Assembly: GCA_945861095.1 (NCBI GenBank) | Contig: CAMATI010000001.1 | Coordinates: forward strand, 3,131 to 67,130 | DNA from: Asaia bogorensis | GTDB taxonomy: Bacteria; Pseudomonadota; Alphaproteobacteria; Acetobacterales; Acetobacteraceae | Direction: 5' to 3' | Length of the DNA: 64,000 nt | Shown: in pieces, positions 5,940 through 49,700 of the stretch | How positions within the stretch are numbered: position 1 is the stretch's first letter | Layout: the number at the start of each line of letters is the position of its first letter | Position numbers and translations under genes: made by a program | The notes under the pieces: generated by a model | Database searches by the model: none | What the model was told of the DNA's origin: nothing | Seen by the model: only the letters and a program-made list of their open reading frames with translations

Positions 5940-6010
5940 CGCCGCTCCTGACGGGGGACCGGCCTGAATGCTTGGTTCTCGGTCGCGAACGGCGCCAAAG
6001 TGGGGATAGG

Positions 6011-15000: not shown

Positions 15001-16435
15001 AGAGCCCAAGGGCGTTATGATCGAGCATCGATCCGCCTTGAATACGGTTATCGACGTCAATGAGCGCTATTCGGTTACGCCGCGTGACCGGGTACTGGGC
15101 CTGTCCGCCCTCGGCTTCGATCTGTCCGTGTATGACATTTTCGGTATATTGGGCGCGGGCGGCGTTCTCGTGCTGCCCACCCAAAAGTCCATCGGTGATC
15201 CCGACCATCTCGCTCGGCTTGTGCTCGATCACAACGTGACGATCTGGAACTCCGTGCCGATGTTCATGCAGTTGTTCGTATCGGCCGAACAGGCGACCGA
15301 AGCGCTGCAAGGACTCCGCCTGGTCATGATGAGCGGCGATTGGATCCCGATAGGGTTGCCCCCTCGCCTGCACCAGGCAAACCCGGCATTGGATGTTGTC
15401 AGTCTGGGTGGCGCAACCGAAGCATCCATATGGTCGATTGCCTATACGGTAGGATCGCAGGATCCGACATGGGCCAGCGTTCCCTACGGGTTTCCGATGC
15501 GAAACCAGAGATTTCACGTGCTGGACGATGATATGGCCGACTGCCTGGATGGCATGTCAGGCGAATTGTATATCGCGGGGGTCGGCTTGGCGCGCGGATA
15601 TTGGCGCGACAAGGACACCACGGACGCACGCTTCGTGCGGCATCCCGTCACCGGAGAGCGCTTGTATCGCACCGGCGACCACGGGCGCTACCGCGACGAC
15701 GGGGTGATCGAATTCCTGGGACGGGTCGACGGGCAAGTCAAACTCGGCGGCTTTCGCATCGAACTCGGAGAGATTGAAGCGTCGCTCGCGCGACATCCCG
15801 GCATTCGACAGGCAGTGGTCGTAGTGCGGGGCGGCCGCACCGATCACAAGTCGCTGGCTGCCTTCTTCGTGAGCGAGGCGGCCAATCCGCCCGATGCGTC
15901 CGACCTGCGCGCCTATCTTGGAACGTCATTGCCCAATTACATGATCCCATCGACCTTCGAACGCCTGACAGCCCTGCCGCTGAACTCCAATGAAAAGGTC
16001 GATCGCAAGACTTTGGCGATGTGGAAGCAACCCGGCGCGGCGGGTTTCCAGGAGATCAGACTGCCGCAGGCGATCGCTGCACCCGCGGTGCGGGCGGCCG
16101 AACTGGAAGAGCGCATATTGGCGATCTGGAAAGAAGTGCTGGGCAATCCGACCCTGCCCGCCGATGGGAAGCTCTTTGAACACGGCGCCCATTCGTTTCA
16201 CGCCGTCGACGCCAATGCCCGTATCAATCGTGCGCTGCGGATCGGATGCACCGTCACCGATATTTTCGAGTTCGCGACCGTACGGGCGCTGGCGGAAGCC
16301 CTGGCGAGCCGTCAAACCTCTCAACCGACGGTCAGCGACGCGCCCGTCGCAGCACAGATCAATGGCCATGCCATGCCACGAAGCCCGTCCCGCGGACAGC
16401 GGCGCCTTCAGTATCGCTCGTCACCGTCGGCCTAG
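6011..16435 (+). CDS. Hybrid PKS-NRPS 1: KS-[AT remnant]-cMT-ACP-ACP-ER-KS-ACP-Cy-A(Cys)-PCP
   Basis: Start ATG 6011 after GGATAGG. KS1 DAACAGS/HGTGT/GHLE (~6017-7290); c[10 protein letters not shown] (~8460-9490); ACPs GVDSL and GVDSI (~9520-10020); ER LNFRDV and HAATGGVG (~10090-11040); KS2 DTGCVS/HGVGT/GHT (~11120-12385); ACP GLDSL (~12940-13145); Cy [34 protein letters not shown] (~13200-14500); A domain [22 protein letters not shown] with hand-read code DLYNMSLIWK (~14540-16030); PCP GAHS (~16110-16310). Confidence 0.92.
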
Positions 16436-34300: not shown

Positions 34301-37300
34301 CCGGCGAAATCCGCTACTTTCAGGCGGACGCCACCGACATCGACGCCATGAGCGAGGTCGTTGCCTGCTTGCGCGATACCTGGGGCGGGATTGATGCCGC
34401 GATCCACGCGGCTCTGGTGCTGCGAGATCGCACCATCGCACGCATGGATCGCCCGACATTCCATGCCGTCCTGGCCCCCAAGATCGCCGGCAGCCTGGTC
34501 ATGGCCGAGGTCCTGGCGGGCGAGAACCTGCAATTCTTCGCCTTCCTGTCTTCAGTGAACGTCATTTCCGGTTCTCGCGGACAGGCAAGCTACGTCGCGG
34601 CATCCAGTTTCGTTGACGCGTTCGCCCGCCAACTGGCCGCGGAACGACCGTGGCGCGTGATCGTCACCGACTGGGGACTTTGGGGCGACGTCGGCGTCGT
34701 CAGCGACGAGAGTTATCGTTCGCGACTGGCAGCACTGGGCGTGCATCCGATCAGCCCGGCAGACGGAATCGCGACATTCTCGTCTGTATTGGCAGGAAAC
34801 GTAAATCGCGTTGCGATCGTTCGGGCAGATCCGGAAGCCCTGCGCCAACTGGGACTGGCGGAATCCCCCGCCGTCGACGCGGAAGCCGGGCTGGAACAGG
34901 CGGAAGAGGCCTTTGCGCACTTAGAACGATACGGGCGTGTCTGTCTTCGGGAGACTCTGATCCAGATGACCGCCGGCGCGTCCGACAAGGCATGGACACC
35001 GGAAGGCTTGCGCCGCCGCCTGGGGATCTCACAGCGCCGCACGACGCTGTTTGCGGCGTTGCTGGATGCGTTGTCGCGGGACGGCCTGGTTGTTTCAACC
35101 GATGGATTGTGGCGGTTTGGCCCAACGCGCCCGGATCAGGTCAATTCCTCCCGCGCCATGCTGGACACCGCCCAGCGCGCCGCGACATGGCTGGGCGGAC
35201 CGCGGCGGTTGTTGCAGGCTTGCCTCGACGCCTATCCCGGAGTGTTGCGAGGAGAGATCGACCCGGTTGGTGTATTGTTCCCACACGCCTCCATGGAACT
35301 TGTCGAAGCAGCGTATGCAGCCAATCCTATAGCCGATCGTGCCAACCAAGCCGTGGCCGGCGCGGTCAGGGACCTTGTCGCAGCCCGGGCCCACCAGGGT
35401 GTTACACGCATCATCGAACTCGGGGCCGGAACCGGTAGCACAACTGCTGTCGTCCTTGATGCGCTCGGTCCTCTGGCGGAAACCGTCGAGTATCTTGTCA
35501 CCGATGTTTCCCAACGGTTTCTCGCCCATGGCCGGACCCGGTTCGCGGGATGCAACAATATTCGGTTCGCGGTGTATGACGTTGAACGGGACCCGACAGA
35601 GAACGGCCTTGAAGAAGCCGACTTTGACGTCGTCGTAGCGGCAAATGTGTTGCACGCTACGTCCGATCTGCTCGCCACACTGACCCGCACCCGCCGCCTG
35701 CTTGCCCCGACTGGACGGTTGGTGGTTTCGGAAGCGACGCGGGCGCAGGATTTCGGAACAATGGTATTCGGACTGACCCAGGGATGGTGGTTGGCCACCG
35801 ATCGGGACCGGCGCATCCCCTTCTCCCCTCTGGCTACGATCGAACGATGGCGTTTGGCGCTGATCGAAGCAGGTTTCGCCGATACAGATGTCCTGACGGT
35901 CGCGCGGCCCGGCAATGCGCCACCACACGCCGTGCTTTCGGCCCGGAATGCCGGGACGCATGCAACGAACGCCGCGACCGCAAGGCGGGCACCCCTGCCC
36001 AATCCGTCGGCGACCGTTCATGCGCCGCCCACAACCGACCGCCTGCATGACTACCTGCGGACAATTCTCGCGGACGTGCTGAAGGTCGATCCAGATGAAG
36101 TGCGAGTGGCCGAAAGTTTCGATCGATACGGCATGGAGTCGCTGACCGCGCTTGAAATCCGTAATCGCATGGATCGCGACATTCCCGGGCTGCCCGCTAC
36201 TTTGCTGTTTGAACACAACACAATAGCACGCCTTGCGACCTGGCTGACCGAGACGCACCCGAATGCACTGGTTCGGCTGTTCCGCCCTCCCGCGGCCCGG
36301 GACAGCGCACCCAACCCCGTCGAGCAGCCTTCGTTGCCGGTGGCGACCGTCGAACCTGCGACACAAGCAAAGCGCGCCGGCACGGATGAACCGATCGCCA
36401 TCATCGGCTTCGCCGGTCGCTACCCCGGCGGCGCAAATCCCGACCAGTTCTGGCAACTTCTGCGATCGGGCAACAGCGCGATCAAGGAAGTGCCCGCCGA
36501 CAGGTGGTCCGCCCCCGCAATGTTCGACGCCGCCGGCGCCGAGGGTCGGTCGTACACCAAGTGGGCCGGCTTCATCGACGACGTCGACTGTTTCGATCCG
36601 CTATTTTTCAACATTTCCCCGCTTGAAGCCGAGGTGATGGACCCACAGGAACGACTGTTCCTGGAAACTGCCTGGGCAACACTGGAACAAGCGGGCTACA
36701 CGCCCGCGCGCTTGAGGGATCGCGCGGCTGACATTTGTCTGGACGGCGGCGATGTCGGCGTCTTCGTCGGCGCGATGAACGTACCCTATCAATGGTTGGC
36801 CGCGGAGGCCTGGGCGGCCGGACACCCAAATGCCGCGTCCACCAATTACTGGTCGATCGCCAACCGGGTTTCGTTCCTGCTCGATTTTTCGGGCCCGAGC
36901 ATGGTCGTCGATACCGCGTGTTCCGCATCTCTGACGGCAATTCATTTGGCCTGCGAAAGTTTGCGGCGGGGCGAGTGCGGCGCTGCTCTGGCTGGCGGGG
37001 TCAATCTGATCCTGCACCCGAGGCAGTTCGTGAACCTGTCGCAGGCTCGGATGGTGTCGCATGGGGCGGAATGCCGGGCATTTGGTTCAGAAGCGGATGG
37101 TTTCGTGGATGGGGAGGGTGTGGGGGCGGTACTGTTGAAGCCACTCTCGGCGGCGCAACGCGACGGTGACCGGATAGAGGGTGTTATTCTCGGTAGCGCC
37201 GTCAACACAGGCGGACGGACGTCCGGGTTCACGGTGCCCAACCCTCGCGCACAGGCGCGCGTGATCCGTGCCGCGTTGGGCCGAGCGGGCGTGGACCCGT

Positions 37301-40026
37301 CGGACATCACGTATGTAGAGGCTCATGGGACGGGAACCGCGCTGGGTGACCCGATCGAGATCGCGGGATTGACGGAAGTCTTCGCGTCGACCGATCGGTC
37401 CCCCTGCGCGATCGGCGCGGTAAAGGCCAACATTGGGCATCTGGAATCAGCAGCGGGCATTGCCGGTCTTACGAAGGTTTTGCTGCAATTGCGACACCGG
37501 ACCATTTTACCCAACCGACATGCGGCCACACCAAATCCATTGATCGACTTCACTAAGACACCGTTCGTCTTACCCGCGGAACCGATGCAGTGGGAAGCAA
37601 GCACACCGGGCGGATTGCTGACCGCGGGCCTGAGTTCTTTTGGGGCCGGTGGTGCCAACGCACATCTGGTGGTGCAGGCCTATGACCAACCCGGTCCTCC
37701 TCCAACCGCAACGAACGGAGATGACCTCATCGTCCTGTCCGGGAGCGACCCAGATCGGCTCCGCGTCATCGCCACCAACCTGCTCGGCCACCTGCGCCAG
37801 CACTCGACCCCTCTTGCGGATCTTGCCCACACACTGCGCGTTGGGCGACAGGCAATGCCGACTCGATTGGCGATCTTTGCTCGCGAGCAAATCGAATTGG
37901 AGGCGAAGCTGACGGATTGGCTGAATGGTGCGCCCAGAGACGGGGTGATGCATGGCCCGGTTGACGGCAAGCCGACGCGCACCTTGTCCGAAACTGAGGC
38001 AGGTCGGGACGAGATCACCTCATTACTATCCCGTCGGGATCTTCGGCGCCTGGCGGAGCTTTGGGTGCAGGGTGCTGACGTTGACTGGACCTCCTTGCCG
38101 ATGGACCGCGCGCCGCGCCCGGTGGCATTGCCGACCTATCCGTTCCGGCGGGACCGCTATTGGCTTCCGACGCGCCCGGAAGCGACAGCAGCCCCGCCGC
38201 TGGCGGAACCGTCGGCCGAACCAGAGGTCATCGACCAACCCGCTCGGATCCAGTTGTTTTGCCGAACCTGGCAACCCGCACCAGCCCTACCACACCGTCG
38301 CGCGGGGACGGTTTTGGTGCTGTCGCGCGACACCGCGCTCGCGGTATCGCTGGCATCCATTTGGACCGGCAACGTGAAGACGATCCGGGTTGGAAAGGGT
38401 TTCGCGGAACTGGACTCGCATACCCTGCAATTGGACCCGGCGTCGGAAGACGATCACGCCGCGCTGATCGCGTATCTGATCCGCACGGAACCGCGCGGTT
38501 TTGACATCGTGCAAGCGCTGGACTGGCAGGCTGGCGGCGGTTCGGCCGGCGGCGACGGACCGCTCGCCAGCATCCTGCTGGCCCAGGCCGCGCAACGCGG
38601 AGAGGCATCCAACGCCCGTATTCTGCACCTGTTCGGCCAAGCCGACGATCGCCCCTTGGACCAGGCGGTCGGCTCTCTGGCCCGATCCGCGGTCCAGGAA
38701 AGTGACCATTGCCGCCTGCGGGCCGTCGGTATCCTCGGTCCGGTCGACCCCGAACGTGCCGCAACGATTTGCCTTGAGGAGTTGCTTGCCGCCGACGACG
38801 CCCCTGAAGTATCGCATGGTCCAGACGGCCGTCAGTCACCTGGCATCGAACCGGTTTCGGTCGACCCCAAACTCGCAACGATCGGCTTCCGCATCGGCGG
38901 CGCCTATCTGCTGGTCGGCGGCCTGGGGGAAGTCGGCTGCGCGATCGCCGAACGCCTCGGGCGGGACTATCGGGCACGTATCGCCATTATCGGCCGCAGC
39001 GAACCACGCGGACCAGCACTGGAACGATTGCGCAAGCTGCGGGATTCAGGCCTGCAGGTTCATTACGAGGCGTGCAACCTTACCGACCGCCCCGGTCTCC
39101 ACCGGGCCCTGGCATCGATCCGCGGCCAGTTCGGTCGTCTGCACGGGGTTTTGCACCTGGCCCGCACAGTGGAGGACGCCTTGCTTGTCCGCAAATCCGC
39201 CGCCAGTGTCGGACGCGTCATGGCAGCGAAGGTGGACGGCAGCATCGCGCTCGATGCAGCCCTTGCCGGGGAGGAACTGGATTGGTTCGTGCTGTGCTCG
39301 TCCCTGGCTGCGTGGCTTGGTCTGGCCGGTGGCGGCGATTACGCCCTGGCATGTGCCTTCCAGAGCGGGTTTGCCCGCTTGCGCCAGCAAAAGGTCGAAC
39401 GCGGCGAACGTTACGGACGCACGGTTGCAATCTGCTGGCCGCAATGGCGTCATGACAAATATCTCAACGACGCGAAGCTACGCCGTCTGGCGGCCGAGGG
39501 TCTGCAAACAATCGACGCGCGGGACGGGCTTCGCATTATCGAACAGGCGATGCAGGCGGACCGCACAGAGGTCGCCGCCGTCAAGGGCACCGAACGCGCG
39601 TTTCACCGCCTGACATTGGCCTACCGTCAGGACACCGCGCCACTGGTCGCCGCCCCATCGGTCGACCCGGACGACGGGTTCGCCGCCGAATTGGGCCGTC
39701 TGACAGATGCGGAGCTGTCCGCCTATTTGGTGCATCTGAGGCCAGCCGAGCCGGAGCCGGCCGCGCCATCGGAGGACGCCGAACAGGTTGTGCTCGAAAC
39801 CATCTGTGCCTTCCTGAAAGTCCCGGCGGATCGCTTCGACGCCGACGCCGAATTCGCCGCGTTCGGATTGGACTCAATCAAGGCCTTGCATGTCTCGGAA
39901 CGTCTGCAGAAGCGCCTGGGGGTCCAGATTGATCCCGCAATGTTCTATGAATACCCCCGGATTGGCGCTTTCGCTAAAGCCCTTTCAGGTCGTTCGGCGA
40001 TGCCGTCGATGAGGATCCGATCATGA
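25366..40026 (+). CDS. trans-AT PKS 3: cMT-ACP-KS-DH-KR-ACP-KS-DH-KR-cMT-ACP-KS-KR-ACP
   Basis: Start moved to GTG 25366 (GTGA overlap with the previous stop, GGGAG SD). cMTs ILEVGAGTGG and IIELGAGTGS; ACPs GVDSI, GIDSI, GMESL, GLDSI; three KS with DTACS/HGTGT/GH; DHs HRLHQQSVLP and HLVQGRLMLP; KRs GALGGIG, GGAGGIG and GGLGEVG, each with the catalytic Tyr. Confidence 0.92.
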   Translation: MTRRIDPFTALDPYAVLLLHQAVGQQDIAALALPRHQRLVSALNRLLRAAPSRSAPAAEIRANLLAVAPDLAPHVRLLEHCANHLIAVICGRAVASDVMFPAGSMSLVEPIYQGNRWTDHFNNLTAIAVVRAVATCVSRNDTGLVRILEVGAGTGGTSGAVLAALEPYHDSISYDYTDVSPGFIQHGKKVHGHNRPFLTARLLDLERPPGPQGFEAGSYDVIVGTNVLHATSRIAMSLEHINGLLRNGGLLLLNEITRSGAFASMTFGLLDGWWAFRDPEVRLPDSPVLSAAGWRQMLSGVGFNTPATFGWTNPPEESFQCLFVAAKIAEAASRAIPSRDLRPVLAEHLAGLLGLDPTELAADRPLADYGVDSIVAPQFVTILNQQLGSRLVPTDIFNCATLAGLAEHLRTMPLASPGEGTLCSPEATVSPTPTPEPASRDIAVIGLSCRFPGARDASEFWRNLVAGKSSITEVPPDRWITTETGRTRWGGFLEDHDCFDPEFFNLSWREAEAMSPQQRVFLEQAWNALENAGYGKKGLSGQRCGVYVGAAPDGYGVNQNDSLSSLGGSLAILSARISYVLDLKGPSLPLDTACSSSLVAVHLACQSLLSGDCDMALAGGVSILMTDHRLHSFLDDAGMLSPTGQCHTFDAAADGFVPGEGVGIVVLKRLDQALADRDAIVGVIKGSGVNQDGRTSGITAPSGPAQSALEEMVYQRAGVSPSAIGLVEAHGTGTQLGDPIEVNALANTFRRHTDRTAFCALGSVKTNVGHTLTAAGIAGLIKILLAVRNETIPPHLNYESENPEVDFAATPFFVPRQALPWHGVPRLAAVSSFGFSGTNAHVVIANAPVLKPLRAPVTGTPYLILLSARSPDALDARRQDLLDWLRDNAPDLTDLAYTLCHGRGHFEHRLALIVDSIEALREWRGTVLQSEPLVLPARGNQDAEMATLLAARSPDLGLIADCFIRGGDGDWSRLAQQGANRLALPGYRFLRQRFQTRPISATPPPIAATEQPGDLHPLLLANVSRFGQVAFSLKLDLNAVWFRDHRLHQQSVLPASAIIELAREATSRATHRPVSGVMNLRFQRPITATSNGPFKIALEPWGNGASFVVTDAHEVVYAEGRAETDPMPLAPSGFDLPALQARLRSHFTPGEIYARFGSLGFDYGSGFQVITALHASTDEVLAELTSPSPVDDRVSLDPALLDGAIQSAVGLVLVKNEALSSVVPVSMGQVTLHGQLRNACLAYVLLLSTENDIRRLKIAVMDTDGQAIATLDDVAIRVVATERRDDAILTFVPGWEPVPIPAADPPSRIVLFDRDEGVWRQLGRDAILVRPGSAFCRLEQRSFAIDPANPEDYTRLLDTLRSEGLAVRTAWHLWSRQPVAIDLRSATNEAIGVSLRDGLHSVFTLAASLARQSSGDAVTLLHVHTAGPTAPSLHAPVAAFGAALRRENPALHVASVSLSSPEIPHIIANLSAETALALDGIDNDICWDIAGTRTVQRLRPFALPTAQAPALRKQCVILLTGALGGIGHHIARHLAARHQARLVLMGRSPSGATDEALVAAIRSAGGDAFYVAGDVANETDVRTAVTLAKSRFGVLHGVIHAAGVTRDRFLLHKHSNDLDAVLAPKLFGTLALDRATAEERLDFFVCFSSLAGRFGNAGQTDYSAANRFLDAYMQHRAGPGRSLSIGWPYWRDGGLAVDDVEQRRRSEATGIRSIETAEALTIFDTLLTMATGSVLLLPGDPDAIQALTNQAAPGPRPLTRGTTDATAIDNAVDYLRTLLADATSIPEDRINPDRPLEQYGIDSILVTRLNAALEQRFSGLPKTLFFEHQTLREAALYLAARHAAQLAPKLTADFVLPTPSAPPAQSDGMAIIGIAGRYPGADTLEAFWDNLCADRDLITEIPADRWDQAAWFDATPGTPGRSYSKWGGFLTGVDQFDPLFFNIAPAEAASIDPNERQFLEVCWEALENAGHTRTTLARDSARSVGVYAGVMYGEYQLLAAAAQSGGRGTVGGASPYWSVANRVSYHLDLHGPSMAVDTACSSSLTAVHLACQALASGECSLAIAGGVNLSLHPLKYVGLSQGRFAASDGHCHSFTAGGDGYVPGEGVGAVILKPLSAALADGDYVHAVIRGWSTNHGGKTNGYTVPNPRLQGKAIAASLRRGGIDPATISYIEAHGTGTALGDPIEVAGLAAAFDGGLPPRSCALGSVKANIGHLEAAAGIAGLTRVVLQMQHRTLTPTRRHGPDNPNIDFSATPFHLQHERKSWDRPEPLRAGVSSFGAGGANAHLIVESFRPSRAKATETGPAVLILSARTEAQLRAYAERLIPFFRASPFSLADVCRTLQVGREPMSVRLAVVVSTLDAAAGHLAEFLRQTSETVHFGTVDDDAVDVPLHDQAGLEDIARAWVSGTSVDWETQALPGQLVPVPPHPFMRRRYWLDTAPAPLTVSANATPRPFLDRSEPSLDGAVWVRHFLPTEPIVRDHLVQGRLMLPGVAQLEMAWAAMAAIVRPTDVLTDVVWSAPMLIGANGTEARITLRNAEDGMTFEIVIPGVGPTCRGRSGQSHLGTTATIDVVGLRNAASRHLPATQIYATLGVLGVTYGPSLRSLTDIWIGDGTVLAALSPISAPSGMTLPPSVLDGALQSLLGFADTDTDAERLFIPFSLNEVRRNGDLDLARFVVSRCREISGEVAVFDMKICDADGNVLLTLDRLAARPGPRRKPEVSVPLTIREPVWEALPHVDRLPAGAMVVVVHTSSDQALARRFVTDFDAGSILLTDDAAAIALAVSSATDIVWIASPPYGGTISEQSEDMAYKLLRVIQELDRSGRLGRDLRLRIVTCGFQSVSAREKPDPRAAALVGVAKCVALEFPRVAVTLTDLDATTRDALSVAGLVLAEFASVPVREVAWRTGTRHVLGTRPVRLPDAIPPVRPGSVVMIVGGAGGIGCEIASWLARDCSARVALIGRRAEASLATPVRGLSSGAGEIRYFQADATDIDAMSEVVACLRDTWGGIDAAIHAALVLRDRTIARMDRPTFHAVLAPKIAGSLVMAEVLAGENLQFFAFLSSVNVISGSRGQASYVAASSFVDAFARQLAAERPWRVIVTDWGLWGDVGVVSDESYRSRLAALGVHPISPADGIATFSSVLAGNVNRVAIVRADPEALRQLGLAESPAVDAEAGLEQAEEAFAHLERYGRVCLRETLIQMTAGASDKAWTPEGLRRRLGISQRRTTLFAALLDALSRDGLVVSTDGLWRFGPTRPDQVNSSRAMLDTAQRAATWLGGPRRLLQACLDAYPGVLRGEIDPVGVLFPHASMELVEAAYAANPIADRANQAVAGAVRDLVAARAHQGVTRIIELGAGTGSTTAVVLDALGPLAETVEYLVTDVSQRFLAHGRTRFAGCNNIRFAVYDVERDPTENGLEEADFDVVVAANVLHATSDLLATLTRTRRLLAPTGRLVVSEATRAQDFGTMVFGLTQGWWLATDRDRRIPFSPLATIERWRLALIEAGFADTDVLTVARPGNAPPHAVLSARNAGTHATNAATARRAPLPNPSATVHAPPTTDRLHDYLRTILADVLKVDPDEVRVAESFDRYGMESLTALEIRNRMDRDIPGLPATLLFEHNTIARLATWLTETHPNALVRLFRPPAARDSAPNPVEQPSLPVATVEPATQAKRAGTDEPIAIIGFAGRYPGGANPDQFWQLLRSGNSAIKEVPADRWSAPAMFDAAGAEGRSYTKWAGFIDDVDCFDPLFFNISPLEAEVMDPQERLFLETAWATLEQAGYTPARLRDRAADICLDGGDVGVFVGAMNVPYQWLAAEAWAAGHPNAASTNYWSIANRVSFLLDFSGPSMVVDTACSASLTAIHLACESLRRGECGAALAGGVNLILHPRQFVNLSQARMVSHGAECRAFGSEADGFVDGEGVGAVLLKPLSAAQRDGDRIEGVILGSAVNTGGRTSGFTVPNPRAQARVIRAALGRAGVDPSDITYVEAHGTGTALGDPIEIAGLTEVFASTDRSPCAIGAVKANIGHLESAAGIAGLTKVLLQLRHRTILPNRHAATPNPLIDFTKTPFVLPAEPMQWEASTPGGLLTAGLSSFGAGGANAHLVVQAYDQPGPPPTATNGDDLIVLSGSDPDRLRVIATNLLGHLRQHSTPLADLAHTLRVGRQAMPTRLAIFAREQIELEAKLTDWLNGAPRDGVMHGPVDGKPTRTLSETEAGRDEITSLLSRRDLRRLAELWVQGADVDWTSLPMDRAPRPVALPTYPFRRDRYWLPTRPEATAAPPLAEPSAEPEVIDQPARIQLFCRTWQPAPALPHRRAGTVLVLSRDTALAVSLASIWTGNVKTIRVGKGFAELDSHTLQLDPASEDDHAALIAYLIRTEPRGFDIVQALDWQAGGGSAGGDGPLASILLAQAAQRGEASNARILHLFGQADDRPLDQAVGSLARSAVQESDHCRLRAVGILGPVDPERAATICLEELLAADDAPEVSHGPDGRQSPGIEPVSVDPKLATIGFRIGGAYLLVGGLGEVGCAIAERLGRDYRARIAIIGRSEPRGPALERLRKLRDSGLQVHYEACNLTDRPGLHRALASIRGQFGRLHGVLHLARTVEDALLVRKSAASVGRVMAAKVDGSIALDAALAGEELDWFVLCSSLAAWLGLAGGGDYALACAFQSGFARLRQQKVERGERYGRTVAICWPQWRHDKYLNDAKLRRLAAEGLQTIDARDGLRIIEQAMQADRTEVAAVKGTERAFHRLTLAYRQDTAPLVAAPSVDPDDGFAAELGRLTDAELSAYLVHLRPAEPEPAAPSEDAEQVVLETICAFLKVPADRFDADAEFAAFGLDSIKALHVSERLQKRLGVQIDPAMFYEYPRIGAFAKALSGRSAMPSMRIRS

Positions 40027-43000
40027 GCGCGTCACGCAAGGACCTCGAACAAGCGGCGGGTCGCCTGTGGCGCACCAGGCAGGGTGAACATCTGCAACGT
40101 CCTGCCGAATTCGCGGCGGGATTGCGTGCCACGCCCACCTCACCCGCACCCGCACCGGCGCCCACTCCAACCACGATCACCCGTTCGGCTGAACGACTGG
40201 AATTCAGTCTTATGTTTTTTTCGGCCGCCGCGGGAGACGTTGCGCGTCCGGACTTGTATCATCTGGTGCAGCAGGCGGCCCAGTTCGCCGACCAGCGGGG
40301 ATTCTCCGCGGTTTGGCTACCGGAGCGGCATTTTCATCCGTTTGGCGGTCCCTATCCGAACCCGGCGGTGCTGGCGGCATCGCTGGCGACCGTTACCAAT
40401 TCAATCCGCTTGCGGGCTGGCAGCGTGGTGCTTCCGCTTCACCAACCGGCCCATGTGGCCGAAACATGGTCAATGGTCGATAACCTGTCCAACGGTCGGG
40501 TGGAAGTCGCGTTCGGCAGCGGCTGGAACCCCAACGATTTCGTGTTGTCCCCCGATACGTTCGCCGATGCGACGGATGTCTTGCGGCAACGGGTCCAAGA
40601 CGTGCGCGCTTTCTGGCGTGGTGACACGTTGTCATTGCCGAACGGCCGCGGAGAGACGGTTCCGATCCGCATCTATCCCAAGCCGATCCAACCTGACCTA
40701 CCCGTCTGGATATCCACAACGGGGACCCCCGCGTCGTTTGCGTGGGCCGGCGCGTCCGGCTGCAACATCCTGACCATGCTGCTCGGCGGCGAAATCGATG
40801 ATATCGCCCCCAAAATCGCCATCTACCGGGCCGCTCGCCGCGACGCGGGTCTGGACCCCGATGCGGGCAAGGTCGCCCTGATGCTGCACAGCTTCGTGCA
40901 CGAAAGCGGCGACTTCGCACGGGCGACCATTCGCGCCCCGTTCCTGGACTATGTGCGCAACTCCGTCGATGTGCAGCGTCACGGATCGGACGCAGGGCGT
41001 GCCATGACGGAGGCTCAACGAGAACAGGTCATTGGTTACGCGTTCGAACGCTACACAAGATCGGCGGCGCTGTTCGGCTCCCCATCCGAATGTCGCGGTG
41101 TGCTGGATCGCGCGGCCGCGGCCGGAGTCGATGAGATCGCCTGCCTGATTGACTTTGGCGTCGAGGACGGGCTGGTACTGGACGCATTGACCCACCTGGA
41201 CGCGCTGCGTCCAACCCGTCCCGTCGTTGCGGGTCCGTTTGTTGCACCGCCCGCCGCTGTTACGGCTCCGTCGCAAGAGCCGATCGCCATTGTCGGTCTG
41301 AGCGGACGCTTTCCCGGGGCACTGGACGTTGATGCGTTCTGGAACAATCTGCGCATGGGTCGCGCGTCGATGACTGCCCCTCCCCCGGGTCGAGATAGGC
41401 CGGACTTGCCGCCGCTCGGCGGATATATTGACGACCTGGATGGTTTCGACTGCGACCTGTTCGACGTTGCGCCAGCCGAGGCAACCGCCATGGACCCGCA
41501 CCAACGCGTGTTTCTGGAGCAGGTTTGGGCCGCGGTGGAAAACGCCGGATACAGACCCAGCGATCTGCGTGGCACCCCGACCGGCGTGTTCGCGGCCGTC
41601 TATTCCACCAGCCACGAATCGACTTTACGGGCAAAAGGGGAAGCGCTGGACGGATTGTCGGTCGCTGGCGCCGTATTGTCGATGGTGCCGAATCGCACAT
41701 CGTTTCTGTTCGACTGGACCGGCCCCAGCGAGGCCGTGAATACCGCCTGCTCCAGCGGGTTGGTGGCCGTGCATCGGGCGGCCAGCGCATTGCGGGCGGG
41801 TGAATGCGGCATGGCGATTGCCGGCGGCGTCAGCCTGCTGCTGGCCCCGGAGGAAACCGCGGCGCTGGCCCGTCTTGGCGTGCTGTCGCCGGACGGGAAC
41901 TGCCGAGCGTTTGATATGAAAGCGGAAGGACAGGTGAGGGGAGAGGGGGCGGGGGTCGTCGTTTTGAAACGACTGTCCGACGCGGAGCGTGACGGCGATT
42001 TCATCTACGCTCTGATCCGCGGTTCGGCGGTCAATCATGGCGGCGCGCGCGGCAAGTCACTGACCATGCCCAATCCCCGCCTGCAAGCCGCTTGTATGGT
42101 CGACGCGATCAGCCGATCCGGGATTTCGCCAACGCGGATCGGCTATATTGAAGCGCATGGCGCTGGCACATCCATCGGCGATCTGGCGGAACTGAGCGCT
42201 TTCACGCAGGCGTTCGACATCCTGGGGGCGGCGCCGAGCGGCAAGTGCGTGGTCGGCAGCGTGAAGTCCAACATTGGCTCACTGGACGCCGCGGGCGGTA
42301 TTGCCGGGCTGATAAAAGCCGCCCTGGCATTGCATCATCGGACGATACCGGCCACGTTAAACCGTCAGAACGATCCGGACGGCTTCGATCCCGCTGGTCC
42401 ATTGCGTTTTGCCGATGGAACCCATCCCTGGGATCCACCCATCACTGGCGGTCGCGCAGCCGGCGTGCACGCCTACGGTCTTGGCGGCACCAATGCACAC
42501 GTGGTGCTGGATGAATATACGTCCCGTCCCGACATGCCATCCGCGCATGGACCGTCGATCGTGACGATTTCAGCGCGGTCCGCGGCTGGCCTACGAACAA
42601 CGCTCGATCGTCTGGCCGCCTGGCTCGACAATCCACCCCGATCCGCAACGGTGGCCGACATCGCCTACACGCTGGCGTCGGGACGGGAGGCCTTGCCCTG
42701 TCGCTGGTCCACGGTGGCATCCGATCTCCCTGATCTTCGTTCCGCCTTGCGGGATGGCCCCACGGAACGCGCTACGGATACAGCATCTGCGGCCGTCCCC
42801 ACCTCGGGACGTCGCATTCCGCTGCCGGGCACGGCCTTCGAACGAGCATCATCCAGTGTCGTCGGGTCCTTTTATGACAGCGTCACCCGGGCAGAGGAAC
42901 GGGAGGGCGACATCTACCTGACCCTCGCGCCGTTCCCGGACGTGGTGCCCGGCTTTTCATGGACCCGCACCTTCCAGGACCCCGACCACAACCCGGGGCA

Positions 43001-43742
43001 CTGGGCCATGTTGCAGGCGGCCCAAAGGGAAATGCGAGAGGTGCTGTTTTCCGGCGTCGATTTCGCCGCGGTCAGGGCGATGCACGATTTTGGTTGCGGC
43101 ATCGGGACGGACCTCATCGCCCTTGCCCGCGCTCACCCTCATTTGACCGGTACCGGCTACACCATCTCGGCGCGCCAGGCCGGGATCGCCCGGACACGAA
43201 TCAGGGCTTCCGGTCTGGACGACCGCCTGTCCATACACCACCGCGATAGCGCGCGTGATGCTTTCCCGGGATCATTCGATCTTATCTTCGGTTTCGAGGT
43301 CGCGCACCACATTGCCGACAAGACGGCTTTGTTCGCCAACATCGCCTCCCATCTCACGGATGACGGCTATCTGTTACTGGCCGACTGCGCTGCCAACACG
43401 GCGGCCCCGATCAATCTGCCAGACGTGGGATCGTTCACAAGCCCGAAGGAAGACTACGCTGAACTGCTTGCCCGCCAGGAGCTTGAAATCACCGAGTGCG
43501 TCGACCTGTCGCGGGAGGTGGCCAATTTCCTGCACGATCCCGGGCTGGACACAATGCTTGCGGAGGAGGCGTCGCGGGGCGGCGCCAACGTGTCATTGGT
43601 TGCGTCTGTTCAACGGTCCTGGGACGGGTTCGGCCATGCCCTCCGATCTGGGCTGCTGTCCTATCTGCTGATCACCGCTCGCAAGCGGCCCGATGTCTCC
43701 GGGCTGTCGGCACGCAACCGCCGCCAAATGGGGGTCGCATGA
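40023..43742 (+). CDS. Luciferase-like monooxygenase (LLM)-ketosynthase (second His lost)-class I methyltransferase (probable O-MT) tridomain protein
   Basis: LLM FSLMFF, WLPERHF, IRLRAGSVVLP, DEIACLIDFG (~40200-41210). KS9 NTACSSG/HGAGT but GSLD in place of GHLE (~41275-42515). C-terminal MT YLTLAPFPDVVPGFSW, HDFGCGIG, FDLIFGFEVAHH (~42860-43690), unlike the LE(V/I)GAGTG cMTs elsewhere. Confidence 0.85.
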   Translation: MSASRKDLEQAAGRLWRTRQGEHLQRPAEFAAGLRATPTSPAPAPAPTPTTITRSAERLEFSLMFFSAAAGDVARPDLYHLVQQAAQFADQRGFSAVWLPERHFHPFGGPYPNPAVLAASLATVTNSIRLRAGSVVLPLHQPAHVAETWSMVDNLSNGRVEVAFGSGWNPNDFVLSPDTFADATDVLRQRVQDVRAFWRGDTLSLPNGRGETVPIRIYPKPIQPDLPVWISTTGTPASFAWAGASGCNILTMLLGGEIDDIAPKIAIYRAARRDAGLDPDAGKVALMLHSFVHESGDFARATIRAPFLDYVRNSVDVQRHGSDAGRAMTEAQREQVIGYAFERYTRSAALFGSPSECRGVLDRAAAAGVDEIACLIDFGVEDGLVLDALTHLDALRPTRPVVAGPFVAPPAAVTAPSQEPIAIVGLSGRFPGALDVDAFWNNLRMGRASMTAPPPGRDRPDLPPLGGYIDDLDGFDCDLFDVAPAEATAMDPHQRVFLEQVWAAVENAGYRPSDLRGTPTGVFAAVYSTSHESTLRAKGEALDGLSVAGAVLSMVPNRTSFLFDWTGPSEAVNTACSSGLVAVHRAASALRAGECGMAIAGGVSLLLAPEETAALARLGVLSPDGNCRAFDMKAEGQVRGEGAGVVVLKRLSDAERDGDFIYALIRGSAVNHGGARGKSLTMPNPRLQAACMVDAISRSGISPTRIGYIEAHGAGTSIGDLAELSAFTQAFDILGAAPSGKCVVGSVKSNIGSLDAAGGIAGLIKAALALHHRTIPATLNRQNDPDGFDPAGPLRFADGTHPWDPPITGGRAAGVHAYGLGGTNAHVVLDEYTSRPDMPSAHGPSIVTISARSAAGLRTTLDRLAAWLDNPPRSATVADIAYTLASGREALPCRWSTVASDLPDLRSALRDGPTERATDTASAAVPTSGRRIPLPGTAFERASSSVVGSFYDSVTRAEEREGDIYLTLAPFPDVVPGFSWTRTFQDPDHNPGHWAMLQAAQREMREVLFSGVDFAAVRAMHDFGCGIGTDLIALARAHPHLTGTGYTISARQAGIARTRIRASGLDDRLSIHHRDSARDAFPGSFDLIFGFEVAHHIADKTALFANIASHLTDDGYLLLADCAANTAAPINLPDVGSFTSPKEDYAELLARQELEITECVDLSREVANFLHDPGLDTMLAEEASRGGANVSLVASVQRSWDGFGHALRSGLLSYLLITARKRPDVSGLSARNRRQMGVA

Positions 43743-46700
43743 TTACCTACGCACAGAAGCTGCAGACGCTGCGGCGACGCCCGAATCCCGTATCGCCAGG
43801 GGTCGCGGGACCACGGGATCGGATGCTCGACCTGCTCACCAACACATTGGGTGTGCCGAACGATCAGGTGTCCGCCACGACATCGTTCGCCGAACTGGGT
43901 CTGAACTCCCTGTTGGCGGTGCGGTTCCTGGACGCTGTCAACCGCGCCTTCCACCTGAAACTCGGCGTGGAGGTATTGTTCGCGCACGGGTCCGTCTCCA
44001 GCCTTGCCGATCATGTCGCCGCGTTGACGCCCGTGCCACTTCCCGTCCAGTCAGGTGCATCTACATCTGCCGTCAACGACGATATTGCCATCATCGGGAT
44101 GGCCGGGCGGTTCCCCGGCGCGCCTAACCTTGAGCTTTTCTGGCAAGCCCTCGCCGACGGTCGGAACCTGGTCCGGGAAGTCCCAGCGGATCGATGGGCC
44201 GCCGCCGAATTCTACGATCCGGACCCGTCGGCTGTCGGCAAGACTGTCAGCAAATGGGCGGGATTTCTTGACGACATAGATCGTTTTGATGCTAGCTTCT
44301 TCAATATCTCCCCCCGCGAAGCGGCGGCGATCGACCCACAACATCGGCTGTTCCTGGAACAGGCCTGGCTCGCCTTCGAGAACGCGGGCTATACCCCCGA
44401 ACGCCTGGCCGGAACCGCGACAGGTGTTTACGTAGGCGGTTCCGGGTCCGGCTACGAAACGATGCTGTTGCCGGATGCCAAGGCATCGCAATCCTATGGA
44501 TTGACCGGCAATCTCGTATCATTGCTGGCCTCCCGCATCGCCTATTTTCTCGATTTGCGCGGCCCCGCGCTGGTGGTCGACACGGCCTGTTCCGCATCCC
44601 TGGTCGCCCTGGATCTCGCCTGTCAGGCCCTGCAACGCGGCGAGATCGGGATGGCACTCGTCGGCGGCGTAAGCCTGTTCCTGGACGAGAAGCCGTTCCT
44701 TGCCATGACCCGCACTGGGATGCTGTCGCCCGACGGGCGCTGCCACACATTCGATTCGTCCGCCAACGGCATCGCGGTGGGGGAAGCCGCGGCCGCACTG
44801 GTGCTGAAACCCCTGGCCCAGGCCTTGGCGGACGGTGACCGGATCGATGCCGTTATCAAAGCCAGCGGCACCAACCAGGACGGGCGCAGCAACGGCATAA
44901 CCGCGCCGAATCCGCTCGCCCAGGAGGCCTTGCTGCGCGCGGTTCACGCGCGGGCCGGGATCGATCCAGCAACAATCACCTACATCGAAGCTCATGGCAC
45001 CGGAACGCCATTGGGCGATCCGATCGAAATCGCCGCGTTACGATCGGCGCTTGGCGACCGCCCCGTCGACGCCGAACCCTGCGCGATAGGAACGGTCAAA
45101 AGCAACATCGGCCACACGGCGGAAGTCGCTGGCTTGGCCGGTCTGATCAAGACCGTGCTCTGCCTGCGTCATGGGGAATTGGTCCCATCGATCAATTTCA
45201 CCTCGCTGAACCCAAAGATCGACTTTGGAGCGTCGGGTCTTTCCGTGGTCACCAGCCGCCGACCATGGGTCACGGCCCGAAATGCGCCCAGACGTGCCGC
45301 GGTCAGCGCATTCGGACTGAGCGGAACGAACGCGCATGTGGTTTTGCAGGCCCCACCGGATTCTCCCTCTGCTGTTCTCGATCCGCGACCGATGCCACTA
45401 CTGTTGTCTGCCCGTGACGCAGACGCCCTGGTTAGACGGGCCGGGGAACTCGCTGACTGGCTTTCTGGCTCCGGTGCCGGAACAAGTCTCGCGGACGTGG
45501 CTGCCACGCTGGCGAGAGGGCGCTCGCATTACGACCATCGGCTGGCTTTAGTTGCGACGTCTACGGCGGACGCCGCCGGCCGTCTGGCGAACGGTACATA
45601 TCCCACGCGCGTGGCAGGGCGGGATCGTCCGTCGTCCGCGCCTGTCGCATCGCGCGCCGATGACATGGCGCGGGCTTATCTGGACGGTGCCACGCCGGAC
45701 TGGCCCGAATTTGGACCGTCCGCTCGGGCCAATCTGGACCTTCCTGGCTATCCCTTTACCCGCACCGTGCATTGGGCGGCGCGGCGACCCACCCGGCCCC
45801 AGGCATCGCATCCCTTCGCCGATGCAAACGATCCGACCGCTGTCTCCCATCGCTTTACAGCGAACGATCCGGTCGTGCGGGACCACGTCATCGGCGGCGT
45901 GCCATTGCTGCATGGCGCCATTTTCCTGGAAATGGCCAGGATGGCGGGGTCCCGCAAGTCCGGCAGCGACGTGACCGGCTTACGAAGTGTCGCATGGGAA
46001 CAGACCGTCGAGGTGCCCGAAAATGGATTGACGGTCCGTATAGACACGGTGTCCTCCGCCCCGGGCCTGGCGTGCTCTATGTTCGCCGAGAACCGGGACA
46101 AGCCGGCGGCACGATGCGATGTCGTATTTACACCCCCCCCGACACCGCCGTCGATCGATGTGAAATCTGTCAAGGCGTCGGCTGATCGTCACGCGACGCG
46201 CCACGATCTCGACGCGCTCGATCGTGGACCGGTTCGGCTTGGACCTTCTTTCGCCGGGTTCGATGCGTTGTGGCTGGGTGGCGACGCTGCTCTCGCCTGG
46301 GTCGCACCGATCAACGCTGCCGACGGCTGCGGGTTTCCGCCGCGGCTTATGGATGCGGCGATCCAGACGGCCGCGGCGTTGCTGGCGCGCAACGACGGCG
46401 CGACATTGCGGCTTCGCTATCCTTCGACCGTCGCGTCCATAGACATGATCGGCCCCGCACCGCGGGACGGCTGCCATATCCTGGCGCGACAGACCGGCAC
46501 CGATCGCGTGGACATCACCATTGCCGACACCGATGGTACGCCCAGGATTCAGTGGGTCGGGTTCGAAATGCGGACCGCGGTACACCGTGGCGCCACCGGC
46601 GAGACGCCATCCGCGCGAACGCTGCGGCCCGTCTGGATCGCCACAAACCAGGAACCCGGTGACCTGCGGCAGCCGGATGCGATCTTCGGTGACGCCGATC

Positions 46701-49700
46701 TGGCGGATCGCGTGGCGGCAGGGACGTCGATCGTCCCCGTCGCCATCAACAACCTACACGACATCACGCGGGTGGCCGCCGGACTTCGCGACGGTGCCCG
46801 GATTGTCTGGATCGACGACGGGACCGGGGCGGTCGATGGTCTTCTCCACCTCACCAAACGGCTTGCGGCCAACGGCCTGGATCAGTCATCCGTCGAATTG
46901 CGCCTTGTCACCACGAACGTCCATCGGGTTACCGGCCAGGAAAACGGATCCAATCCTCACGGCGCCGTCGTTCAAGGATTGGCCAAGGCCATCGGTCGGG
47001 AGTTTCCGACCTGGCGCGTGATCCTGTTAGACATCGACGGCGCATTACCCGACCCCCGCTCTACGGTGTTGCAGGCCGAACCGACCTTGGATGGAGAACC
47101 CGCCGCGTGGCGAAACGGCATACGTTATGAGCGCGTATTGGAACCGATCGACAGCGGTCGTCACGAACAACCCTTGCGCCACGGCGGCACCTATTTGCTG
47201 ATCGGAGGCATGGGCCGCGTTGGACGCGAGATTGCCCGCCATCTCGCGTCCCGCTACGCCGCCAATCTCATCCTGCTTGGCCGCTCGGCTTTTAACCCCG
47301 ATCGGCTGAAATTCCTGGATGAACTGCGTGCTCTGGGGAGTGACGCGGAGTATCGACAGGTCGACATCACCGAGCCCAGTGTCCTGACGCCTGTCATCAC
47401 GACGGCAAAGGCTCGCTTTGGCGCGTTGCATGGCGTGATCCACGCGGTTGTCGATCCCCTGTTTGCCCGTCTGGAACGGACCGACGAAGCAGCCTTCGCC
47501 TCCGCCCTGCGCCCGAAGGTGCTCGGTCTGACCGAACTGGCCACGGCTACGATGCGGGAGGCCCTGGATTTTCTGGCGATATTTTCCTCCATCGGTGCCT
47601 ATGCGTGCTTTCCCGGCAACGTCGGACAGGCCAGCTACTGCGCGGCGTGCTGCTTCGAAGACGCGTTCGCGGCCCAACTGCACGGCGCGGGACGGAAGGT
47701 GCGCCTGATCCAATGGGGCCTGTGGGACAATGAGGCATTTGCCGGTGACGGGTTAAAGCGCTTGCAGCGACAGGGCACTTATCCGATGCGTGCCGCCGAC
47801 GCGGTGGACGCCTTCGAACGGATCCTCGCGGGTGTCGATAGCCACGTTGTGCATGCCAGTCTCTCAGAGCCGGTCTGGCAATCCATGGGCGCGGTCGCAA
47901 CTGCCGGTCGGCTCTTCACCGAAACGGCATCGGCGCTGCTCGGTTATGGCCGAAACGCCGAGCGGGAGGATGCGTCGTTGCATCTGTTGGTCGATGCATA
48001 CGGGCGGGAGTTGGTTGAGCGGGTTATGCGGCAGCAAGGCTGGGGGGAGGATCGGATTGGGCGGGACGCGTGGTGCGCCAGGTGGAAGGTCCTGCCGCGG
48101 TACCACCGATTGCTGGATGGGTTGCTGGACATGCTGCAACGCCCCCATTCCCCGGCACCCACCCGCGCCGAGTTGCTGTCGCGAGCACCGAGCCTGCGGG
48201 AGCCGTTGGAGCTTCTGGAATTGTGCACCGCCGCGTTGCCAGACGTAATCAGTGGCGAGCGACAGGGGACGGATGTTTTGTTTCCCGGCGGGTCCATGCA
48301 GCGCGTCGAGGCGATCTATCGCAATCAACCCGTGCTCGCCGCGTGCAGCGCGATGCTTGCCGCCGCTGTCGCCGCCGCTCGGCCTTTGCGGGTCCTGGAG
48401 GTCGGTGCCGGCACCGGCGCGACCGCGGATGCTGTGCTCGCGGCGATGCCGGCCGGTTTTGTCTTCGAGTATCATTTCACCGACGTTTCCGCCGGCTTTG
48501 TGCGTCATGCGCGTCAGAGACGGAACGATCCCAGGCTGCGCTTCGGCGTCCTGGACATCGAGCAATCCGCTACCGCCCAAGGCTTCGACGCCGGCGGTTT
48601 CGATTTGGTTATTGCGACGAACGTCTTGCATGCGACGCGTGATATCAACGAGACATTGCGCCATATCGAGGCATTGCTGAAGCCCGGGGGGATGCTGCTG
48701 ATTAACGAAATGACCGTGGCCGAGGATTTTGCCACGCTCACGTTCGGATTGCTGGATGGCTGGTGGCGAGCCCGCGATCAAAATACCCGGTTGCCGCATA
48801 GCCCGTTGCTGGACGTGCAAGGCTGGCGGCGTGAACTGAACCGAGCCGGATTTGGCAACGTAACCGCCGCCGCCGCTCCCGGGTTCGAGGATGTGCAAAC
48901 CTGCCCGCAGGTCGTACTGTTGGCCGCCAAGGCAGCGCTCCGCCCGACCGTTTCGATCCCGCGCCCAGACACCGGGGCAGCACCAAACATCACTACCCAC
49001 GTGGCGACCGCGGCAGGTGGTGTCGAGGCCCTGGTGCGTGGCCTGGTCGCGGCGGGGCTTGACCTGGAGCCGGACGCTATCGACCCGGACGCGCCGTTCG
49101 GAGATCTGGGTGTCGACTCGATCGTCGCGCCACAGATCGCCGAGGACATCAACCGAGCCGCGGGCATTTCGTTGCGGTCAACCGATCTGTACAACTTCGC
49201 GACGGTGCGGGCACTGACTTCCCATATCACCGAGAACTTTCCGGACTGTGCAATCAACCTGTCTCCGCCTCCGATGGCACTCCCGCTGCCGACGCCAGCG
49301 AACCCGACACCGCACTCGGTCGCGGGTGTCGCGCCGGTTCAACCCAGAGCGATCGACGCAATCATCCCAGACCGGGCCGTTGCCATCGTTGGCATGGCGG
49401 GACGTTTCCCGGACGCCCCGAATGTCGATGCTTTCTGGCGCAACATCGCGGCTGGTCGTTCCGCCGTACGGGAAGTGGACCGTTTCGATCTCGCCCCCCA
49501 CTTCTCCCCCGAGCGCGGTCAGTCGGGAAAAACTTACGCCAAATGGGCGGCGTTGCTGGACGACCATGACCGATTCGACCCCCTGTTCTTCGCGATCTCC
49601 CCCGCCGAGGCCGAGGCGATGGACCCGCAACAGCGCCTCTTGCTACAGGAAGCCTGGCACGCGCTGGAAGATGCGGGAGCCACGCCGCAAAGCCTGGATG

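Follow-up and report, generated by a model that had tools for sequence, protein, structure and literature searches.

How polyketide chains are α-hydroxylated on-line is still little understood. Assays exist for just two enzymes, MupA and OocM, with conflicting results as to the need for a non-elongating ketosynthase (KS0). MupA, from the mupirocin pathway, performs an FMNH2/O2-dependent α-hydroxylation that accepts only β-ketoacyl chains on an acyl carrier protein (ACP), before ketoreduction and beside a KS0; patellazole has been cited as a case in which the hydroxylating domain lies in cis, next to the KS0 (PMC10952193). Here we describe a 64,000-nucleotide stretch of the Asaia bogorensis assembly GCA_945861095.1 (the window), which covers positions 3131-67130 of contig C1 (CAMATI010000001.1) in a genome of 6.4 Mb, 505 contigs, 65% GC and 97% completeness. 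The gene at 40023-43742 of this window encodes a luciferase-like monooxygenase (LLM), a ketosynthase (KS) and an O-methyltransferase (OMT) in one polypeptide. As judged by homology, the protein is very probably a PtzB-type, carrier-less subunit of a polyketide synthase (PKS) of the trans-acyltransferase (trans-AT) type, belonging to an α-hydroxylation/O-methylation bimodule split over three polypeptides. It would most likely add a hydroxyl and an O-methyl group to the chain without lengthening it.

Given its homology to PtzB of the patellazole pathway, this fusion of LLM, KS0 and OMT is not a new design. The architecture and probable role of PtzB were reportedly described by Kwan et al. in 2012, which makes the protein itself ordinary as a discovery. 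What is added here is the loss of the second catalytic histidine in all 71 KS domains found directly behind an LLM, the grouping of the PtzB-type LLMs in one clade, and a contiguous patellazole-like locus. A search for the architecture recovered it in at least 53 database protein clusters among the best 120 homologues. The original prediction of a hydroxylate-then-methylate unit, made from the DNA sequence, had overrated its novelty, PtzB being already known.

Domain organization of the LLM-KS-OMT protein

The open reading frame (ORF) 40023-43742 of the forward strand is open throughout and encodes 1239 amino acids (aa). Scans with Pfam and NCBIfam profiles gave the domain order LLM-KS-methyltransferase (MT), with all matches far beyond chance, and detected no phosphopantetheine-binding (PP-binding) or ACP domain in the protein. 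Translation and profiles thus bear out the predicted content of an LLM, a KS whose second catalytic His is Ser and an MT, without ACP. As a single polypeptide lacking a carrier, it fits the size of PtzB-type proteins (~1.1-1.3 thousand aa), and a homologue search aligned it to PtzB of Candidatus Endolissoclinum faulkneri L2 and L5 (1251 aa) with 46% identity and 95-96% coverage (BLASTP alignment of 1231 aa, 1001 bits). Selection on its parts was estimated as the Nei-Gojobori ratio of nonsynonymous to synonymous substitutions (dN/dS) against an 82%-identical orthologue in locus L003. The gene and its parts are:

40023..43742, + strand: whole gene of the LLM-KS0-OMT protein, a PtzB homologue, with ATGA overlaps at both ends
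40023..40202, + strand: N-terminal ~60 aa, a conserved helix-like segment, then a Pro/Ala/Thr-rich linker (family consensus; dN/dS 0.12)
40203..41210, + strand: luciferase-like FMN-dependent monooxygenase of the MupA/Atu3671 family (TIGR04020; match to PuwE, 6KET)
41277..42542, + strand: predicted non-elongating ketosynthase KS0, 'KS9' (triad motifs, Pfam)
42543..42839, + strand: KS flanking subdomain and linker (Pfam KAsynt_C_assoc, RhiE-like linker, CurL-like C-terminal region; dN/dS 0.37)
42840..43739, + strand: PKS-type O-methyltransferase domain (StiE/StiD O-MT structures 6ECX, 6ECT, 6ECW, 6ECU)

In the protein, the LLM spans aa 61-396 and the KS aa 419-780, the flanking linker extends to ~aa 910, and the class-I S-adenosylmethionine (SAM) MT occupies aa ~977-1134. 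The first ~30 residues follow a family-wide pattern, MxxxRxxLExxAxRLW...RP, and this helix-like segment is probably a docking element for the terminus of the upstream ACP. The protein is translationally coupled to both neighbours: its ATG at 40023 overlaps the stop of the upstream gene, and its own stop is overlapped by the ATG at 43739, where the downstream gene truly begins, each time as ATGA. The L003 comparison gave dN/dS values of 0.067 for the LLM, 0.11 for the KS, 0.13 for the OMT and 0.37-0.42 for the two linkers, all of them rough given a dS of ~1. The LLM, KS and OMT are all under purifying selection.

Loss of the second catalytic histidine in LLM-adjacent KS domains

The KS triad of the protein reads Cys576-His712-Ser753. 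The cysteine (TACSS, codon 41748-41750) and the first histidine (EAHGAGT, codon 42156-42158) are kept, and codon 42279-42281 (TCA) places Ser753, within KSNIGS, where the NIGH histidine is expected. When the 13 complete KS domains of the window were aligned, this histidine was absent from the ninth KS only and present in the other 12. The Cys-His-Ser triad recurs in 21 of 22 aligned family members, PtzB included.

To see how general this pattern is with respect to the position of the LLM, the best 120 homologues were sorted by domain order and their KS triads were read. All 71 KS domains lying directly behind an LLM have the second His replaced (Ser in 51, Phe in 10, Ala in 9 and Thr in 1), and all 71 keep the Cys and the first (HGxGx) His. 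The proteins with the LLM-KS-OMT order are uniformly Cys-His-X (53/53), X being Ser in 49, Ala in three and Thr in one. The second His is equally absent from the 18 other proteins that begin with LLM-KS (Phe 10, Ala 6, Ser 2), whose partners are, for instance, a dehydratase (DH) with another methyltransferase type, or an ACP with a thioesterase (TE). By contrast, Cys-His-His is kept in all 49 proteins whose LLM lies downstream of a KS-AT-ACP module (AT, acyltransferase). From these alignments, loss of the second His with retention of the Cys and first His may be a usable signature of LLM-associated KS0s.

Both KS histidines are needed for decarboxylation of malonyl units and condensation, but not for acylation of the cysteine, as known from His mutants of FabB and FabF. 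A KS that keeps its Cys and has lost the second His therefore fits a transfer-only KS0, and the predicted KS0 character of this domain gains weight from the conservation of the loss across the family. A strong match of the KS to 7ZMA (549 bits) was considered as a sign of a special relationship and rejected, as the construct is a bimodule and the score adds up the matches to two KS stretches.

The oxygenase belongs to the MupA family

The LLM domain matches TIGR04020 with 437.7 bits against a cut-off of 244.45 and covers the complete profile (1-341 of 341), which places it in the MupA family, as had been anticipated. Its closest solved structure is the oxygenase domain of PuwE (PDB 6KET, E 1.7e-96, 44% identity), and it is ~50% identical to many free-standing proteins that NCBI names MupA/Atu3671 family. 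For the PuwE oxygenase, the proposed role is 2-hydroxylation of a 3-amino acyl chain, bound to its carrier, in puwainaphycin formation (PMC4219810).

Across the 22 family members, dozens of LLM residues are invariant, including the PERHF motif that holds His103 (codon 40329-40331). With 88% identity to the L003 orthologue and the lowest dN/dS, the LLM is the best-conserved part of the protein, which argues against a decayed or merely structural domain. In a FastTree phylogeny of 149 LLM domains, all 52 usable PtzB-type sequences, the present LLM included, and one truncated member form one clade (support 0.996), so that the PtzB architecture seems to have been invented once. LLMs from the remaining LLM-KS0 fusions are dispersed over the tree, between stand-alone LLMs and LLMs embedded in cis-AT proteins; according to this tree, the fusion of LLM and KS0 as such may have arisen several times.

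The methyltransferase resembles StiD and StiE

The C-terminal 319 residues match the crystal structures of the StiE and StiD O-MTs (E 4e-67 to 1e-56), with 45% identity to StiE over 278 aligned residues. Seven C-methyltransferase (cMT) domains were found in the window by Pfam, none of which is significantly similar by BLASTP to the MT of the 1239-aa protein (lowest E value 8e-4, over 53 aa); one of these cMTs matches instead the C-MTs of CurJ, DisA and AprA. The MT is indeed of a different type from the seven cMTs, as the original prediction had it, and groups with PKS O-MTs rather than with C-MTs. StiD and StiE methylate β-hydroxyls of opposite configuration by means of a catalytic Glu, which is replaced by Gln in the β-keto-enol-methylating LynB2/BarF/JamN type (PMC10127204). 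Glu1092 (GFEV, codon 43296-43298) corresponds in the alignment to the sole Glu in the GFEV motif of StiE, is invariant in the 22 members, and is spaced from His1096 as Gln186 is from His190 in LynB2. We infer from alignment and spacing that Glu1092 is the candidate catalytic base; the MT, being of the O-MT class by these comparisons, should act on a hydroxyl.

Flanking modules have the layout of an α-hydroxylation bimodule

The large ORFs of the window were scanned against Pfam in 650-aa pieces. The elements adjoining the LLM-KS-OMT protein are given below (KR, ketoreductase):

36382..37683, + strand: KS8, last elongating KS of ORF 25366-40026 (Cys/His/His; DTACSA / EAHGTGT / NIGH)
38887..39453, + strand: KR of the KS8 module (Pfam KR; GGxGxxG and Tyr motif)
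39787..39984, + strand: C-terminal ACP of the upstream protein (PP-binding E 2.2e-17; FGLDSIKAL; Ser codon 39874)
43820..44017, + strand: N-terminal ACP of the downstream protein, ORF 43739-58945 (PP-binding E 3.3e-15; Ser57 in LGLNSL; Ser codon 43907)
44078..45199, + strand: KS10, next elongating KS (Pfam, motifs)

The Pfam map agrees with the predicted placement, with a KS-KR-ACP module lacking DH on one side and, on the other, a protein whose first domain is a lone ACP. Neither DH nor cMT was detected in the KS8 module, so that the α carbon of its product would be an unsubstituted CH2. The upstream ACP is presumed to carry the β-ketoacyl substrate of the LLM, and the downstream ACP to accept the chain from the KS0 and hold it for the OMT reaction. 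The succession ...KR-ACP / LLM-KS-OMT / ACP-KS..., together with the ATGA overlaps, is the same in five relatives, and ptz shares its downstream side. KS-KR-ACP, KS0, ACP and a MupA-like oxygenase together make up the α-hydroxylation bimodule layout of the mupirocin/oocydin/calyculin type. This context (PMC10952193) favours, at the level of sequence, the predicted hydroxylation followed by methylation.

A peculiarity of the KR domains was also observed. In those at 38887-39453 and 47500-47600, Cys replaces the final Asn of YAAAN (GDYALAC and SYCAAC, respectively). The motif of the KS8-module KR, SSLAAWLGLAGGGDYALAC, is identical in the L003 orthologue; GDYALAC is hence not a sequencing error.

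Proposed reaction sequence and alternatives

In the sequence that we favour, KS8 would extend the chain to a β-ketoacyl thioester with an unsubstituted α-CH2 on the upstream ACP. The LLM would hydroxylate the α carbon with O2 and with FMNH2 from a flavin reductase encoded elsewhere in the genome, and the KR would then reduce the β-keto group. The KS0, acylated on Cys576, would pass the chain to the first ACP of the next protein, unextended since the second His for decarboxylative condensation is missing. There the StiD/StiE-type OMT would methylate one hydroxyl with SAM, using Glu1092 as base, and KS10 would carry the modified chain onward. By the precedent of the StiD/StiE family, the methylated oxygen is most likely the β-hydroxyl, and we favour β- over α-O-methylation by about three to one. 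The outcome would be an α-hydroxy-β-methoxy unit, or, less likely, an α-methoxy-β-hydroxy unit.

Several points weigh against this proposal. Every step is derived from homology, and the non-elongation of KS9 comes from general KS enzymology, not from the PtzB clade itself. Most described trans-AT KS0s lose the HGTGT His rather than, as here, the NIGH His, and loss of the HGTGT motif is the usual diagnostic of trans-AT KS0s (PMC5772238). No flavin reductase was found on the 104 kb cluster contig. The four flavin-reductase family genes of the genome all lie off this contig, so that reduced flavin would come from an enzyme encoded outside the cluster, comparable to the MupA assays, where FMN was supplied together with an added flavin reductase (PMC10952193). 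As to the extender unit, the original prediction had envisaged a route without methoxymalonyl extender genes. On the 104 kb contig C1, TIGR01686 detected no FkbH-type gene, but the genome has two FkbH-family genes elsewhere (C74:11281-12267 and C207:9438-10397). They presumably belong to other biosynthetic clusters, and may leave a methoxymalonyl-type extender possible for the organism as a whole.

The likeliest alternative concerns the regiochemistry of methylation. If the OMT acted on the newly formed α-hydroxyl, the α-methoxy-β-hydroxy product would represent an on-line route to groups normally derived from methoxymalonyl-ACP. Throughout the clade (53 protein clusters), the OMT shares one polypeptide with the LLM-KS0 pair, and the PtzB-type LLMs form one clade, so that the three domains have co-evolved. 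The cluster contig is free of FkbH genes, and the candidate Glu base for hydroxyl methylation is kept. We nevertheless regard this route as unlikely. Units with an α-hydroxy and a β-methoxy group are known in trans-AT products such as psymberin. StiD and StiE, the characterized members of the O-MT family, both act on the β-oxygen (PMC10127204), and modules combining a KS0 with a modifying enzyme exist without any oxygenase in trans-AT lines (PMC5772238). A more far-reaching version, which we consider somewhat more doubtful again, is that LLM and KS0 constitute an obligate two-domain hydroxylase. Here the loss of the His would be adaptive, the KS0 would hold the β-keto/α-hydroxy intermediate or present it to the LLM and shield the labile product, and the co-evolved O-MT would cap the α-hydroxyl; methoxy groups would then be made on-line, without methoxymalonyl-ACP, in the PtzB clade.

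The remaining alternatives concern the LLM and the KS. That the LLM is silent or serves in docking or scaffolding, leaving an ordinary KS0-OMT-ACP bimodule for β-O-methylation, would be in line with the lack of a flavin reductase in the cluster and with NMR data on MupA, according to which LLM-ACP contacts may also be structural at the module junction (PMC10952193). What makes this improbable is the conservation of the LLM, the strongest in the whole protein (dN/dS 0.067 and 88% identity in the L003 comparison), its match to the full TIGR04020 profile well above the cut-off, and the dozens of its residues, PERHF included, that are invariant across 22 members. Very improbable is a Baeyer-Villiger-type insertion of oxygen into the chain, the alternative named in the original prediction, which found no support. 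The substrate would indeed be a β-keto thioester, and some LLM-fold enzymes perform such chemistry, namely the diketocamphane monooxygenases and luciferase, the latter via a peroxyhemiacetal. However, OocK and the Ox domain LmbC_OX are class B FAD/NADPH enzymes and not LLMs, and the sole oxygenase domain of the 1239-aa protein is an LLM (PF00296/TIGR04020), with no class B domain of the OocK type. The LLM belongs to the MupA/PuwE family, the characterized or proposed members of which are α-hydroxylases (PMC10952193, PMC4219810). The KS-KR-ACP / KS0 / ACP order is that of an α-hydroxylation bimodule, and OocK and LmbC_OX, named as trans-acting PKS Baeyer-Villiger monooxygenases, are not encoded in this layout (PMC10952193). 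We give least credence to an elongating KS9 that, despite Ser753, would start a normal extension module with an extra oxygenase. Cys576 and His712 (HGAGT) are intact, yet not one of the 71 LLM-adjacent KS domains retains the second His, and some have in its place Ala or Phe, which cannot chemically replace it. Furthermore, the acceptor ACP directly precedes the next KS, with no reductive domains, so that an extension would leave an unprocessed β-keto group next to the OMT.

A contiguous patellazole-like locus

The proteins around the LLM-KS0-OMT protein can also be related to the patellazole pathway. The C-terminal 2779 residues of PtzA are colinear with the 16448-25369 protein (40% identity over 2825 aa), and the first 3334 residues of PtzC with the 43739-58945 protein (39% identity over 2806 aa). 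In Ca. Endolissoclinum faulkneri, an ATGA overlap likewise couples ptzB to ptzC, whose product has ACP-KS at its N-terminus. The comparison with ptz proteins covered PtzA, PtzB and PtzC; the total length of the assembly line differs from that of ptz. In the window, the assembly line is arranged as follows, including nonribosomal peptide synthetase (NRPS) domains (C, condensation; A, adenylation; PCP, peptidyl carrier protein; ER, enoylreductase; SDR, short-chain dehydrogenase/reductase):

5972-16435: PKS/NRPS protein, KS-cMT-ACP-ACP-ER-KS-ACP-C-A-PCP
16448-25369: PKS protein, KS-ACP-KS-DH-KR-cMT-ACP-KS
25366-40026: PKS protein upstream of LLM-KS-MT, cMT-ACP-KS-DH-KR-ACP-KS-DH-KR-cMT-ACP-KS-KR-ACP
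40023-43742: LLM-KS-MT protein
43739-58945: PKS protein downstream of LLM-KS-MT, ACP-KS-DH-KR-cMT-ACP-KS-DH-KR-ACP-KS-DH-KR-cMT-ACP
58938-59744: 268-aa SDR
from 59746: PKS protein, KS-cMT-ACP-KS...

The last PKS protein (4545 aa) runs beyond the window and ends in a thioesterase. Behind it, inspection of the translations by eye gave a separate KS, an HMG-CoA synthase, an enoyl-CoA hydratase (ECH), a P450 and a methyltransferase, and then a trans-ER-like protein of 508 aa, a pair of acyltransferases, an MDR reductase and an RND pump. The ptz gene list comprises a KS, an HMG-CoA synthase, two ECH, AT1, AT2, two P450, a dienoyl-CoA reductase (DCR) of 804 bp and an ER of 1524 bp (PMC3851785, Table 5). 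The accessory inventory of the contig parallels this list, the ER having the length of ptzQ and the SDR that of ptzO. Taken together by homology, the locus (window positions 5972-63999 plus C1:62876-93400) looks like a contiguous patellazole-like trans-AT PKS/NRPS cluster. The authors of the ptz study postulated an ancestral contiguous cluster (PMC3851785), and the present locus and its relatives look like such an arrangement. As a guess, the 4545-aa protein is the equivalent of PtzD; if so, the product would be related but not identical to patellazole. A search with the C-terminal module of the upstream protein surfaced no PtzE-like partner, its results being swamped by multimodular PKSs, and confirmed only orthologues in the same relatives.

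Two genes of this map show particular features. The 268-aa SDR (58938-59744) is wedged between two PKS genes, with stops and starts overlapping or adjacent, and equals in length ptzO (annotated as 2,4-dienoyl-CoA reductase, 804 bp). The first KS of the 16448-25369 protein (16448-17740) carries IQSASSGSL, with Cys changed to Ser and both His kept, and is followed only by an ACP.

The LLM-KS-OMT architecture occurs in Acetobacteraceae metagenome-assembled genomes, Marinivivus vitaminiproducens, Methylosinus, Falsiroseomonas, Roseomonas, Azospirillum and Methylogaea, among other sources. Among 36 genomes of the same genus (G001-G036), a full-length orthologue was found only in G029 (74% identity, in a syntenic cluster), so that the cluster is patchy in the genus, through horizontal gain or frequent loss. 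A closely related cluster in locus L069 (GCA_024708845.1, JAMXTI010035384.1, 1-17089) has an LLM that is 74% identical, with its PKS genes in many small ORFs (KS pieces of 242, 160 and 93 aa; a free LLM of 362 aa). Assembly errors or decay of the cluster could account for this; with >35,000 contigs, the assembly may represent the genome of a host. The protein P0242 (74% identity) was considered as a natural stand-alone LLM and rejected, as its neighbours in L069 are chopped, which points to frameshifts or decay.

Naturally fused LLM-KS0-OMT proteins from non-reduced genomes of ordinary size, among them the orthologue of the named species Marinivivus vitaminiproducens, could offer a handy system, in a single protein, for studying how oxygenase, KS0 and carrier cooperate and which oxygen the O-MT methylates. 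The patellazole genes are scattered in a tunicate endosymbiont that is uncultured; the locus, which looks like their contiguous counterpart, could also give experimental access to this chemistry.

Comparison with known systems

Mupirocin (MmpD KS-KR-ACP / MupA / MmpA KS0-ACP; PMC10952193) and oocydin (OocL/OocM/OocN) share with the present locus the succession of KS-KR-ACP, KS0 and ACP at a protein-protein junction and an FMN-dependent LLM of the MupA family (TIGR04020). MupA and OocM are, however, free-standing and trans-acting, whereas here one polypeptide holds the LLM in cis, N-terminal to the KS0. A further difference from both systems is the O-MT behind the KS0, with the acceptor ACP on a third polypeptide. 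PuwE (6KET) of the puwainaphycin PKS/NRPS is the closest solved structure of the LLM domain, but there an elongating cis-AT KS-AT-ACP module, its Cys-His-His triad complete, precedes the oxygenase, as in the group of 49 proteins above, and the oxygenase is not joined to a KS0 behind it.

The best structural relatives of the MT, StiD (6ECU/6ECW) and StiE (6ECT/6ECX) of the stigmatellin PKS, share the conserved Glu of GFEV. They reside within elongating cis-AT modules and act on β-hydroxyl substrates without an α-hydroxyl; the present OMT, on the other hand, follows a KS0 and would meet a 2,3-dihydroxyacyl chain. The KS0 modules of the swinholide/misakinolide family (PMC5772238) likewise combine a non-elongating KS with a modifying enzyme, but they have no oxygenase, and their KS0 is recognized by the loss of HGTGT, a motif that the present KS retains as HGAGT, having lost the NIGH His instead.

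The closest counterpart is PtzB, which has the same three domains in the same order, no ACP, a similar length (1251 against 1239 aa) and the same Cys-His-Ser KS with the motif IGSLDA(A/C)GG. Its ATGA-coupled downstream protein also starts with ACP-KS, and the neighbours of the present protein are colinear with PtzA and PtzC. The genomic settings differ: the patellazole producer is an endosymbiont with a reduced genome of 1.48 Mb, against 6.4 Mb and 65% GC here, and the ptz genes are scattered (PMC3851785), whereas those of the present locus are contiguous. Moreover, a 4886-aa protein sits here between the PtzA-like and PtzB-like genes, and the last PKS protein has 4545 aa and a TE, compared with ~6550 aa encoded by ptzD, the largest ptz gene.

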